Shown: positions 4,408-61,439 of the stretch, one piece after another | Layout: each line of letters opens with the position of its first letter | Numbering within the stretch: the stretch's first letter is position 1 | DNA from: Reclinomonas americana ATCC 50394 | Lineage: Eukaryota | Direction of reading: 5' to 3' | DNA: 64,000 nucleotides | NCBI GenBank assembly: GCA_048213135.1 | Contig: PS015134.1 | Span: 62,001-126,000 of the forward strand | Position numbers and translations under genes: made by a program | Notes under the pieces: model-generated | Seen by the model: only the letters and a program-made list of their open reading frames with translations | What the model was told of the DNA's origin: nothing | The model's database searches: none

Positions 4408-7400
4408 ATGAGCGACGCAGCAGCAGCGAGCGCAAGTGACGAGCGAGATGGCCAGATGGCCACCTCAGGTTCAACCTCACACACAACAACACACGCACTC
4501 GCACACACGCACGCACTCTGTCCCTCTCTCTGTCAGTTCTCGTTCTCTCACTCTCTCACACACTCACGCACACGCGCACGCCTGACGATTCGCTCACACT
4601 CACACTCACACACTCATACAGCGTCACCGACTTCATCCTCGACAGGCTCCTCGGGAGTGCCTCCGCCTCCCGCGCAATCGGCATCGGCGGCGGGTGCGGC
4701 GAGCACTGTACCAGCGACGGTTGTTGTCGCAGGCGCAGTCGATTCATCATCCTCTGTGTCATCATCATCATCGTCGCAATTGGCAGTCGGGGGAGCAGAG
4801 GTGACGGGGGAGAAGGCATCTGCTGGTGGTGGGACAGGAGTGTCCTCTACGGCGGCGGCGGCAGCAGCTGCGGGAAGCGGTGCGAGTGGAGTCGCGACGG
4901 GCGAAGTTGGGTGGAATGAGGGATTGAGGGGAGAGAGAGAGAGAGAANNNNNNNNNNNNNNNNNNNNNNNNNNNNNAAGTTGGGTGGAATGAGGGATTGA
5001 GGGGAGAGAGAGAGAGAGAGAAAAGGAAGAGCCTCATGTGGCGCACAGGCTCTGACAGAGGGAGACGCTCTCCATCTCCGCTCGTTTCTCGTGTTGTGAG
5101 CGAAGAAAAAACTCATGGGGACGCACGAAGACGCTCCATCTCCTCTCGATTCTCGCGCACAGAGAGAGAGGGAGAGTGAGAAGAGCGGGTGTAAACAGGA
5201 GTTCATGGGGCGCTCGTACGCTTCTGTAACGTCGCTCTCAGTCTCCGCGCACTTCTCACGCTGAGAGGGAGAGAGAGAGGCAGAGAATGGTAGCACAAGA
5301 AACCTTTGCATTGAGAGAAGGAACAGTGAGTGGGGGGAGAGAGAGGTGGAGAATTGGTCACCGCTCAGGCTCTTGCCTCTCTCCACCCTTGCTCGTTTCT
5401 TGCGTCGAGAGACAGTGGACGAGTGGGGAGGCAGAGAATGGGGCCACTCAGGCTCTTGTCCAGGCGGAGAAGGCCGCTTTGCCGCTCCACCTGCGGTCGC
5501 TTGTTGCACAGAGAGGCAGAGGAGGGGAGAAGATGGAGACGCAGAATAGGAGCTCCATTGCGCATCGCAGTGCTTCTCCAGGAGAAGGAGGCACGTTACT
5601 CGCCACCATCGCGCACAGAGAGAGAAAGACAGATAGAGAGTGGCAGATTGAGAACAACAGTTGCTCAGCAGACACGTTCCTCGGTACTCGTGTGACCGCT
5701 CTCACGCATTCTTTCTTCTCTCTCGCTCAGCGTGTTGCACACAATTCTCAACTCAGCTTCCGTCTCCTTCGCCCTTTCTCCCTCTCTCCCTGTCCTTCTC
5801 CCCGATTCCATCATTCTACGACGATTTCTCTTGCTCGAGTCGTCTCATCGCTCTCCCGCACAGTTGGTCCCGCTGTCGACATTCCTCGAAAGGTTCCAGT
5901 ACCTGGAGAAGGGCGGCCGTGAGAAATCCCCTGTGGTGTGCGTGGAGGGTGCGTCGGAGATCACTTGTCCACGAATTGCATGTTCGATATTGCATTTGAC
6001 TGTAGACCCGTGTGCAGGCATTGTCGTTCGCAAGCGGTCAAATAATCGTTGCGCGTTGGTTGTGTTTCCTCCCTTGATTGGTTCCTCGTGTAGCTGACGA
6101 GTGGGTTGGTGTGTGAAACGCAGCGCGATTGCACTTTGTGGACATTGGAGGAGATGGCGCGTAATGACTGTACTATTTTTGTCTCGCCGATTCTCGTGCT
6201 CACTTTGATGTGTGCGGGCGCAGGAGTTGAGAAGTTCCAGCTGATGTGCGATCAAAGGTGGGAGCGAAGAGAGAGAGAAAGGGGAGAGAGGGGAAGGGTG
6301 GAAAAGGAGTGGGAAAATCCTATTTTCTGCTCTGCAGTTTGTCGTCTCTGCGTTTGTGTTTCTGTCTCATTTCGCTTTCTCTCTCGAATTCCGACGTCAT
6401 TCTCGTCAGTGCATGTGGTATTTTCTCGATTAGCGAAAGGAATGTGGAGAAGGGGAAAGATAGATAAGGAGAAGTGAAGTGGGAAGGCTGATAGACGAGG
6501 GAGAATGAGACATGGGGATAGGAGGGAATGGACGGGCACACTCTCCAGTGAATTGTCGTCTCTCCCGTCGTCCCCCTCTATCCCCTTCTCTTCCACCTTT
6601 CCAATCCCCTGACTCTTATACCGTTCTCATCCTCCTTTCTCTTCCCCTCTTTCCCCCTCTTTCCCCCTCTCTTTCCCCCTCTTTCCCCCTCTCTTTCCTC
6701 CTCTCTCCCCCTCTTTCCCCCTCATTCCCCCTCTTTACCCCTCTTTACCCCTCCGCTCACTTCCCCTTGTCCATGCACAGAGAATTCGACGGCCAGCTGG
6801 CCGACTTTGTGCAGTCGCTGCAAGTTGGAGATCACCTGCGAGTCGAAGGCGTGGCAGGTACAGAGACCCCCCTTCTCCCATTTGTCCTCTCTCTCCCTCC
6901 TCCCTCCTTCTCAATCTTCTCCTCCAACGACAGCCCGTACCATGGCCGGCGAGGTCTCCCTCGTACCCCACCGCGTCCTCCACCATCGACCGGCACCGGC
7001 CGACGCCAACGGCATCGGACACCTCGTGCAACAAAAGTCACATCCGAACTACTCGCTGCCGCAGCCGACGATTTCGCTCTCCGAGTTCCGTGCGAGATAC
7101 GAAAAGCTCGAGGCCGGAGTGGACTGCACGCAGCACAAGATGGAGGTGATTCAGGGTGTGGTCGTGCGCAAGCGCACACTGAATGCCCGCCTGCACTTTG
7201 TCGACGTTCACGGAGATGGTGTCGAAAAGTTCCAGTTGCTGTGCGACCAAAAGTGCGTTGCTGTTTTGTGTGTCCTGCGGGGCGGGGTGAGGGTGACACG
7301 TCTCTCATTGCACCACGCGCGCGCAGTGTGTACCGCGGCAACGTCTCCTTCGCCGTGTCGGCTCTGCGCTTCGGGTACATGGTGCACGTTCAGGGCTTCC

Positions 7401-60257: not shown

Positions 60258-61439
60258 TCACTTCATGCCCTCCGTCGTCGTGCCAGCCACTTGCTTGCGA
60301 GCCAGCATGACCACCTAGCACACACACAATCAGAGACTGACAAGGGAAAAGATAAATGGATAAGAGACGCAACTTCACCAGGCCGCGGCCACCGCCGCTG
60401 CTTCAGCTTGGAAAACAGCAGTGTGCCCGTGTCCACTCGACCCAAATACACCTCCAATGCACCCGACGGCGGGGACTCTGGGTTGCCTGTGCACGAGAAG
60501 AGGTAAGAATTACAGGGAGGGGCGATGTTGACTTTCTCTTTGAGGGCACGTCGCTCGCTCTGGTCTCACTGTGTCGCTCGCGGTATCGCTCGCTGTGCTC
60601 TCTCTCTCTGTGTGTCGTTCGCTGTGCTCTCGCTGTGTCGCTCTGCTCTCTCTCACTTTGTGTCTNNNNNNNNNNNNNNNNNNNNTCGCTCTGCTCTCTC
60701 TCGCTCTGCTCTCTCTCTCGCTCTGCTCTCTCGCTGTGTCGCTCGCTGTGCTCTGCTCTCTCTCTCTCTCTCTCGCTATACCTCTGTGTGTGTGTCGCTC
60801 GCTGTGCTCTCGCTGTGTCGCTCTGCTCTCTCTCTCTCTCGCGCTCTGCTCTCTCTCTCTCTCGCGCGCTCTGCTCTCTCTCGCGCTCTGCTCTCTCTCG
60901 CGCTCTGCTCTCTCGCGCTCTGCTCTCTCGCGCTCTGCTCTCTCGCGCACTGCACTCTCGCGCTCTGCTCTCTCGCGCTCTGCTCTCTCGCGCTCTGCTC
61001 TCTCACGCTCTGCTCTCTCTCTCTCTCTCTCTCTCTCTCTCTGCTCTCTCTCTCCCTCCCCCCTCTCTCACTCCCTCCCTCTCCACCCTCCCTTCTCCCT
61101 TCCTCCCCTCCACCACACACACTCACCCACAACCACAGATCCCGGAAGCGCTTCCTTGAGCTCCTCAGCGAGCTCCTGGAAAGCGCCATAGTAACCTCAG
61201 GAAGCTATATCAAAACACACCAAATAATCAATCAATCAATCAATCTCTCCCCTCACTGTCACACAACAATAAACGCAACTACAGAAGAGAATGCTAAAGT
61301 ACTGTCCATTGCCTTGCGGCTGTTTACACAATCACACAGAGAGCAAGTGAGACAGACAAAAACGCGCGCGAATCTTCTTCTCTCACAGACACTCACTCAC
61401 CACAGAGTCGATCGCGTCACCCGATTGCCCGCTTCCCAT
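60258..61439 (-). CDS. Rdx-family (SelW/SelT/MIEN1-like) selenoprotein with CxxU motif
   Basis: Five exons give MGSGQSGDAIDSV|PQGNGQYFSILFCT|SUGYYGAFQELAEELKEALPGSVVVG|NPESPPSGALEVYLGRVDTGTLLFSKLKQRRWPRPGE|VVMLARKQVAGTTTEGMK*. In-frame TGA at 61197-61199, Rdx motifs GxxEV and FSK, and a SECIS about 95 nt after the stop. Confidence 0.9.

Follow-up and report, generated by a model that had tools for sequence, protein, structure and literature searches.

GTTGCG, an abundant candidate class of 5' splice sites in a 64-kb window of Reclinomonas americana, and its possible recognition in a shifted register

Introduction

At rare human 5' splice sites the U1 small nuclear RNA (snRNA) pairs in a shifted register, in which all 5' splice-site/U1 pairs move by one position while the cut stays at GU, and the validated non-canonical registers together are estimated to account for 1.5% of human 5' splice sites (PMC4856993). 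Here we describe a donor hexamer, GTTGCG, in a 64-kb stretch of a draft eukaryotic scaffold (Reclinomonas americana ATCC 50394, assembly GCA_048213135.1, contig PS015134.1, positions 62,001 to 126,000 of the forward strand; 55% G+C, with 25 N gaps). This whole stretch is called the window, and coordinates are counted from its first letter. We propose that GTTGCG(T/C) is a genuine and abundant GT-AG donor class, that it supplies the commonest donor hexamer of the window and that it is read in a shifted register, and give this statement as a whole a probability of roughly 0.5. That GTTGCG sites are real donors is held with high confidence and that they form a major donor class in the window is likely, whereas their recognition in a shifted register is put forward tentatively, at a little under an even chance.

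The window's motif resembles the mammalian shifted-register sites described in PMC4856993 in that GU is followed by U, or a non-purine, with the conserved G one base later, and, judging from position statistics, in that G+1 would stand in for the exonic -1 G in the U1 helix while the cut is made at GU. It differs from them in that a single such motif is here the commonest donor, and in that the human test sites of the same source carry a contiguous run complementary to U1 (oligonucleotide ACAGUCAAGUAUA), whereas GUUGCGU has no such run. The bulge +2/+3 register (PMC4856993 Figure 1C) likewise places one more U behind GU and moves the downstream consensus on by one base, but it keeps the -1 G pair, and -1 G is present at only 2 of the 25 sites collected here. 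The U12-type introns of Physarum polycephalum, as described in 10.1101/2020.10.12.336362, are similar in being a second class with a near-invariant donor, no exon consensus and a large share of the introns; unlike them, the present class has none of the defining U12 motifs and its 3' halves are those of ordinary introns. A STAT3 tandem donor, for which non-canonical registers of both U1 and U6 have been proposed (PMC11162779), raises the question of whether U6 too pairs off-register, although that case concerns a single human alternative donor pair and not a genome-wide class. No description of a GTTGCG or GUUGCG donor class was found among the literature matches listed, which concerned primers and unrelated uses; the organism's genome paper might describe it.

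Results

Junctions with Homology or Family-Motif Support

Five GTTGCG junctions were placed by protein homology or by a family motif. The spliced protein-to-DNA aligner demanded only GT/GC..AG and used no splice-site matrix. All five introns are of the GT..AG type and their removal restores the frame. They are given below, followed by four ordinary donors of the Ssu72, KDM8 and kinesin genes and one unused copy of the motif; a slash marks the cut, and 'added' marks sites absent from the preliminary description.

28649 to 28577 (motif 28644 to 28649), minus strand: GTTGCG donor of a 73-nucleotide (nt) intron in a kinesin-14 gene, added
15232 to 15237, intron to about 15569, plus strand: GTTGCG donor splitting a PH domain
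61274 to 61279, intron 61279 to 61205, minus strand: GTTGCG donor in an Rdx selenoprotein gene
60368 to 60373, intron 60373 to 60315, minus strand: GTTGCG donor of the last Rdx intron, 59 nt
12989 to 12994, minus strand: GTTGCG donor after Ssu72 exon 2, act/GTTGCG
14119 to 14124, intron to 13110, minus strand: ordinary donor ttg/GTGAGT of Ssu72 intron 1
62287 to 62292, intron 62292 to 62229, minus strand: ordinary donor cag/GTGAGG in KDM8
62138 to 62143, intron 62143 to 62081, minus strand: ordinary donor ttg/GTCTGT of a 63-nt KDM8 intron
28428 to 28433, intron 28433 to 27810, minus strand: ordinary donor cag/GTGTGT in kinesin
62306 to 62311, minus strand: exonic, unused GTTGCGT in KDM8

The kinesin donor at 28649 (exon end tct, then GTTGCGTG) was placed by 14 of 16 homologues and its acceptor at 28577 by 12 of 16; all 16 placed the ordinary kinesin donor at 28433. 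The nearest relatives of the C-terminal kinesin exon are 75% identical, and a protein-cluster atlas pointed, weakly, to kinesin clusters rich in Streptophyta. In the PH-domain gene, the Pfam PH model is matched at positions 3-36 before the donor at 15232 and at 44-104 after the intron, the donor-blind parse described below chose the same site, and the frame meets a TAA two codons past 15232.

The Rdx-family (SelW-like) gene (60260-61450, minus strand) contains an in-frame TGA, and the Cys of its CxxU motif sits in the exon before 61204-61127 (S-U-G-Y-Y...). Splicing at 61279 joins ..F-C through a split Thr codon to S-U(TGA)-G-Y and thus restores CxxU; use of the GT at 61282, beside this donor, would destroy the motif. 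Read with TGA as U, exon 61204-61127 matches Pfam Rdx positions 9-31 of 74 (E 0.071), and exon 60490-60374, which precedes the last intron, matches positions 40-65 of 74 (E 0.021), each match by itself lying below the Pfam cut-off. The donor at 60373 was also chosen by the donor-blind parse.

The Ssu72 match (Pfam positions 32-70) and the alignment to a PDB Ssu72 structure both end at the donor at 12994. Past the proposed acceptor only 12 nt of exon precede an N gap; these presumably read on into the next Ssu72 residues. The 46-amino-acid (aa) Ssu72 exon, used as a query, retrieved 0 homologues in the protein search. Ssu72 intron 1 lies between Pfam matches to positions 2-32 and 32-70, and its ordinary donor was found by the donor-blind, EM and learned parses described below.

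Both ordinary KDM8 donors were placed by 14 of 14 homologues, the nearest database relatives being about 50% identical (best 53%). The same 14 alignments pass through the GTTGCGT at 62311, 19 nt upstream of the donor at 62292, as exon; this copy could be a minor alternative donor. The second KDM8 intron (62143-62081) is in frame and stop-free, so that the open reading frame (ORF) reads through it, and it was revealed by homology alone.

GTTGCG Among Donors Chosen from Coding Potential

In the donor-blind parser, coding potential came from an order-2 model with a period of three that had been trained on six seed ORFs; GT..AG was required, acceptors had a weak prior and donors received no score. 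Under this parse GTTGCG was both the commonest and the most enriched donor hexamer, with 9 of 158 donors compared to 54 of 7478 GT sites (0.7%). The enrichment was significant against all GT sites (binomial P = 2.7e-6) and against the rate in coding DNA (P = 1.2e-4), and the runner-up, GTGCGC, reached P = 0.007. The nine donors are at 9090, 15232, 20505, 42423, 45148, 52208, 56862, 57956 and 60373. The parser was noisy, predicting antisense and merged genes and recovering four of nine benchmark donors.

Expectation-maximization (EM) started from 63 donor-blind introns on the assigned strand, with all in-frame GT/AG alternatives enumerated; 59 had candidates. Gene strands were assigned from Pfam matches and coding scores and were not blind. 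GTTGCG received 6.5 soft counts on coding scores alone compared to 2.8 under uniform choice; after convergence it held 11.7 of 59, and all GTT donors together 20.0. A region-wise parse with learned signals placed GTTGCG at 16 of 77, 13 of 62 and 12 of 53 introns under three intron penalties. The share of GTTGCG among the introns of the window is estimated at roughly 20-35%, a percentage that is rough because the parses recover 4-5 of the nine benchmark donors and predict many false introns. The motif-aware steps also overlooked the donors at 12994 and 61279 and several short intron-shaped candidates spotted by eye. Self-training of the whole gene parse swelled to about 300 introns and was discarded, and a k-mer count upstream of strict CTRAY..YAG patterns covered 40 sites only.

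Both strands of the window hold 54 copies of GTTGCG, compared to 35.6 expected from base composition and 47.1 from an order-4 Markov model. Raw abundance therefore proves nothing, since the excess is modest, and it is the placement of the copies that stands out. The junctions named in the preliminary description took up 13 of the 54. Within multi-exon regions 31 copies are sense and 5 antisense. Of these sense copies 23 are donor candidates, two are unclassified and six are demonstrably or probably unused, namely four exonic copies (62311, 27519, 51799, 58067), an intronic one (28311) and one at an acceptor (12329). Sense copies prevail in coding DNA too, since three intron-less ORFs carry 7 sense and 2 antisense copies; T or C follows at +7, however, in 28 of the 31 sense copies of multi-exon regions compared to 3 of 7 in the intron-less ORFs. 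The heptamer GTTGCGT occurs overall 21 times in sense and once in antisense.

It is very unlikely that GTTGCG is not a splice signal at all and that chance copies or by-products of codon usage were taken for donors. The modest excess of copies, the sense bias of coding DNA and the noise of the parses, including one motif-aware call that is demonstrably wrong (62311), would all suit such an explanation. It has to contend, however, with five junctions of conserved proteins that fall exactly on the hexamer, at a chance of about 0.7% per GT site, with a donor-blind enrichment that persists against the coding rate, and with exonic and antisense copies that do not share the regularities of the donor candidates (T or C at +7, a base other than G at -1). 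The homology junctions and the rank of GTTGCG in the donor-blind parse support the claim of the preliminary description that such donors are genuine and form a major class.

Exon Ends and Downstream Positions

The class sample comprised 25 candidates: five from homology or family motif, seven more from the donor-blind parse and 13 from the learned parse or by eye. It was compared to 29 other donors, hand-listed from the KDM8 alignment, the kinesin alignment and the EM output. Only 2 of 25 GTTGCG candidates, compared to 22 of the 29 other donors, had G at -1 (Fisher P = 4e-7); among the 12 candidates supported without donor information none had it (P = 6e-6). The -1 position of the class resembles instead the -2 position of ordinary donors (G in 2 of 25 compared to 6 of 29; P = 0.26). 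Downstream, T occupies +7 in 18 of 25 class sites, a frequency like that at ordinary +6 (19 of 29; P = 0.77) but unlike that at ordinary +7 (6 of 29; P = 3e-4). At +5, G is found in 27 of 29 ordinary donors; class sites have C at this position, followed by G at +6 (25 of 25, as their definition demands). The displacement of the conserved G from +5 to +6 that had been noted at the outset is accompanied by a displacement of the downstream consensus by one base.

The proposal that class donors mostly follow a non-G exon end and ordinary donors mostly follow G holds for the class and for GTGAG donors, which follow G in 10 of 12 cases; it holds less well for GTGCG donors, which follow G in only 5 of 10. 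The 29 ordinary donors include 12 with GTGAG and 10 with GTGCG[T/C/A], and within the class GTTGCG outnumbers GTTGAG by 25 to 2.

These flanks bear directly on a bulged register, in which ordinary U1 would pair G+1 and U+2, loop out U+3 and resume at G+4. Such bulges are proven at some human sites, at 'position +3 (or +2)' (PMC4856993), and one here would account for the one-base downstream displacement as well as a shift does. A bulge should, however, keep or even strengthen -1 G, because C9 of U1 stays free to pair with it, and -1 G is nearly absent; the predicted duplexes with U1 (below) are also near zero. We regard the bulged register as unlikely; a shifted register fits the statistics better.

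Acceptors, Branch-Like Motifs and Intron Interiors

The 3' parts of the class introns are much like those of other introns. Median length was 68 nt in the class (range 51-77 nt) and 63 nt in other introns. An acceptor was assigned to 18 short class introns and is AG in every one, as the parses require; acceptors of the (Y)GCAG or CACAG type are common to both groups, and the pyrimidine fraction was 0.58 in the class compared to 0.63 in the others. Class introns carry YTNAY branch-like motifs, as other introns do. The strict CTGAC/CTGAT (CTRAY) form was found in 7 of 18 class introns compared to 2 of 19 others, with CTCAY-type motifs seen by eye in the rest.

On this evidence it is highly improbable that the class is removed by a second spliceosome of a minor-like kind, for which GTTGCG would be the invariant donor, as in U12-type introns. 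The invariant extended donor, the missing exon consensus and the sizeable minority of introns involved do recall the U12 type, of which Physarum has 20,899 introns (10.1101/2020.10.12.336362), and the strict branch-like motif is somewhat commoner in the class. The U12-type donor [GA]TATCCTT, however, was matched at 0 of 25 class sites and nowhere in the window on either strand, and the U12 branch core CCTT[AG]AC (from the definition TTCCTT[G/A]AC within about 45 nt of the 3' end) was present in 0 of 18 class introns. Acceptors, pyrimidines, branch-like motifs and lengths match those of other introns, and the GTTGCG motif is one substitution away from an ordinary extended donor.

The class introns share their first 6-7 nt and are of similar length, as would also be expected of copies of a mobile intron (introner) carrying GTTGCG at its end. 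Local alignment of intron interiors gave a mean score of 7.5 (maximum 16) between the 18 class introns and of 8.2 (maximum 22) between other introns. The interiors of these 18 introns thus share no excess similarity, so they are not mobile-intron copies, an explanation to which we give next to no credence.

Recognition of the Motif

GTTGCGT may be regarded as the ordinary extended donor G/GTGCGT with its second G replaced by T. The replacement would displace the sole available GT, so that the cut falls one base upstream. Early recognition, by the U1 small nuclear ribonucleoprotein (snRNP) or by another donor reader, would bind G-[G/T]-T-G-C-G-T in one register for both classes, so that at GTT sites the intron's first base would take the slot of the last exon G. 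The position of the cut would then be set by the location of GU at the later U6/U5 stage, which would have to accept a conserved G lying one nucleotide further from the cut. We infer both the register and the reader of the motif, which may be a variant snRNA or a protein.

Several points weigh against the proposal as a whole, the last two of them against a shifted register on a standard U1. All data come from one 64-kb window, which may not represent the genome, and every junction was derived from protein homology or coding potential, with the low recovery of benchmark donors and the many false introns noted above. Only five GTTGCG junctions are backed by homology, 13 of the 25 candidates come from a motif-aware parse or from inspection by eye, and the comparison set was assembled by hand. 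The motif-aware steps (EM and learned parse) err, having moved a KDM8 donor to the exonic 62311 when the proven site is 62292. Since the exonic GTTGCGT at 62311 and the intronic GTTGCG at 28311 are unused, the hexamer alone must be insufficient for splicing. RNAduplex predictions with the human U1 5' end, from which the organism's U1 may differ, gave the class a mean of only -1.3 kcal/mol with no favoured register, compared to -7.4 kcal/mol for the other donors; in these predicted class duplexes the partner of G+1 was C9 at 4 of 25 sites and C8 at 2 of 25. Finally, GCG prevails over GAG within the class although at +4/+5 U1 could pair with A but not with C.

It seems from this that something reads UGCGY directly, be it an altered U1, an additional U1-like snRNA, U6 or a protein. 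In every case U6 pairing past the cut would also have to make room for an additional base. The shifted or bulged register suggested in the preliminary description consequently fares unevenly: the shift agrees with the position statistics, the bulge is opposed by the loss of -1 G, and a plain shift on a standard U1 is opposed by the near-zero duplexes.

The preliminary description also raised a variant U1 or U6. A co-evolved snRNA complementary to UGCGU/GUUGCGU, either a U1 changed at nucleotides 5-6 or an additional U1-like species, possibly accompanied by a corresponding change in U6, would make GTTGCGT a fully paired primary donor. The class is near-invariant over seven positions, with the preference for GCG just described, and the standard U1 5' end hardly pairs with it and pairs little with GTGCG donors that lack -1 G. 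Bases other than G at -1 are tolerated by 5 of 10 GTGCG donors and by 2 of 12 GTGAG donors, which is expected if C pairs strongly. A standard U1 is nevertheless probably present, given its strong predicted pairing with GTGAG donors that have -1 G (-8 to -13 kcal/mol), and weakly pairing donors are used elsewhere with an unchanged U1, as is GUAUGU in yeast, which also counts against a changed snRNA. Co-evolution of this kind has a precedent in the U12 snRNA and branch site of Physarum (10.1101/2020.10.12.336362). On balance a co-evolved snRNA is a serious candidate but a doubtful one. In the form in which a U1 or an extra U1-like snRNA, perhaps with an adaptation of U6, is complementary to GUUGCGU/UGCGU and a donor without +5 G is the fully paired primary site for a fifth to a third of introns, we consider it rather unlikely.

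Further Candidate Donors

The preliminary description had named 13 GTTGCG junctions and a GTTGAG donor at 10998, and the letters are as stated at every one of these coordinates and strands. Seven of the 13 gained support that is independent of the motif (9090, 12994, 15232, 56862, 57956, 60373, 61279), 35357 and 57251 were chosen only once donors had been learned, and no independent support was obtained for 6048, 47370, 51196 and 58114. The analysis added 12 GTTGCG candidates to these, the kinesin donor at 28649 among them. GTTGCG sites beyond those supported by homology are listed first, then related GTT donors.

9090 to 9095, intron to 9160, plus strand: GTTGCG, 71-nt intron; donor-blind, EM posterior 0.96; CTGAC branch-like motif, GATGCAG acceptor
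20500 to 20505, intron to 20440, minus strand: GTTGCG, 66-nt intron, added; donor-blind, EM posterior 0.99
42418 to 42423, intron to 42357, minus strand: GTTGCG, 67-nt intron, added; donor-blind, EM posterior 0.81
45143 to 45148, intron to 45087, minus strand: GTTGCG, 62-nt intron, added; donor-blind, EM posterior 0.97
52203 to 52208, minus strand: GTTGCG, intron of about 65 nt, added; donor-blind; CTGAC branch-like motif, weak acceptor AAAAG
56862 to 56867, intron to 56931, plus strand: GTTGCG, 70-nt intron; donor-blind, frames open on both sides
57956 to 57961, intron to 58020, plus strand: GTTGCG, 65-nt intron; donor-blind, frames open on both sides
35357 to 35362, intron to 35424, plus strand: GTTGCG candidate, 68 nt; learned-donor parse only
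57251 to 57256, plus strand: GTTGCG candidate with an N gap in the intron; learned-donor parse only
6048 to 6053, intron to 6123, plus strand: GTTGCG candidate, 76 nt; intron-like shape only (CTGAC, then AACGCAG), chosen by no parse
51196 to 51201, intron to 51255, plus strand: GTTGCG candidate in the NIF-phosphatase-like gene, 60 nt; shape only, upstream exon without a Pfam match
58114 to 58119, intron to 58182, plus strand: GTTGCG candidate, 69 nt; shape only, parses favour 58169 or 58177
47365 to 47370, minus strand: GTTGCG candidate with +7 G and a long intron with an N gap; frame argument of the preliminary description only
42686 to 42691, intron to 42641, minus strand: GTTGCG candidate, 51 nt, added; learned parse
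43333 to 43338, minus strand: GTTGCG candidate, one of the two with -1 G, added; learned parse, EM favoured GTTGAT 5 nt downstream
21712 to 21717, intron to 21662 (GCGCAG), minus strand: GTTGCG candidate, 56 nt, added; by eye, from context and open frames
4007 to 4012, intron to 3936, minus strand: GTTGCG candidate, 77 nt, added; by eye, parses use the acceptor at 3936
1814 to 1819, intron to 1750, minus strand: GTTGCG candidate, 70 nt, added; by eye, acceptor 1750 present in parses, PAN_4 exon downstream
769 to 774, minus strand: GTTGCG candidate, added; EM posterior 0.76, learned parse
54257 to 54262, minus strand: GTTGCG candidate with an N gap in the intron, added; by eye, upstream open frame
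10998 to 11003, plus strand: GTTGAG candidate in the TXNDC17-like gene; Pfam TXD17 match (34-54) and PDB TXNDC17 alignments end there
15768 to 15773, intron to 15831, plus strand: GTTGAG donor, 64-nt intron just past the PH domain; donor-blind, EM posterior 0.99
56525 to 56530, intron to 56720, plus strand: GTTACG candidate, 196 nt; donor-blind, EM posterior 1.0

In the TXNDC17-like gene the acceptor falls in an N gap, and GTGGAA at 11003 is a possible alternative donor to that at 10998.

Gene Content of the Window

Pfam searches of stop-to-stop ORFs recognised genes for PAN-domain, TXNDC17-like, Ssu72 and PH-domain proteins, the C-terminal half of a kinesin-14 motor, an intron-less NACHT-WD40 protein, an intron-less TPR protein, a NIF-phosphatase-like protein, the Rdx-family selenoprotein and KDM8/JMJD5; a batch of 150 short ORFs yielded little. 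A metagenome scan gave two short loci of 47-53% identity, which were not informative. The kinesin-14 gene (27453-28769, minus strand) holds the motor only from about position 129 to 327. Alignment upstream as far as 32500 yielded nothing of the N-terminal half, which was probably lost in N gaps and microsatellite-rich sequence. Microsatellites of the (GA)n, (CT)n and (CA)n types make up most of the sequence of long introns (e.g., 11010-11200, 13100-14100, 15240-15560 and 60500-61070), and the majority of the 25 N gaps fall inside these introns.

The NACHT-WD40 (NLR-like) ORF (37173-41198, plus strand) encodes 1342 aa and has no introns in otherwise intron-rich surroundings. Its relatives are 22-38% identical, the best full-length ones being Mortierellomycota proteins at 28-34%, and its WD40 part has 34-38% identity to bacterial nSTAND1 proteins. 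A neighbouring TPR_10/TPR_12 ORF (48044-49780) lacks introns too.

The sole Rfam genes were two tRNA-Gln(CTG) genes with equal Rfam scores, at 18486-18558 (minus strand) and 30806-30878 (plus strand), in opposite orientation and 12 kb apart. At E <= 1, Rfam returned no snRNA gene and no selenocysteine insertion sequence (SECIS) over the window. Sub-threshold matches to several plant microRNA-precursor models, on both strands and in one place (45644-45845), indicate a long hairpin or inverted repeat.

Implications

Spliceosomal introns have few features as conserved as G at +5 and the fixed spacing from the cut to the U1 and U6 helices. Elsewhere, recognition out of register is known only as a rarity, whereas in this organism at least a fifth of the introns would start with a donor displaced by one base. 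Such a genome will be annotated wrongly by gene finders that were trained on GTRAGT-like donors; the motif-blind parse itself obtained four of the nine benchmark donors. An organism with so many displaced donors would offer a natural system in which to study how U1 binding is uncoupled from the choice of the cleavage site, how much slack the U6/5' splice-site helix allows at catalysis and whether core snRNAs can co-evolve with intron motifs. If an snRNA has indeed co-evolved with the motif, this would be the second such case after the U12 snRNA of Physarum, and the first for the 5' splice-site reader of the major spliceosome.

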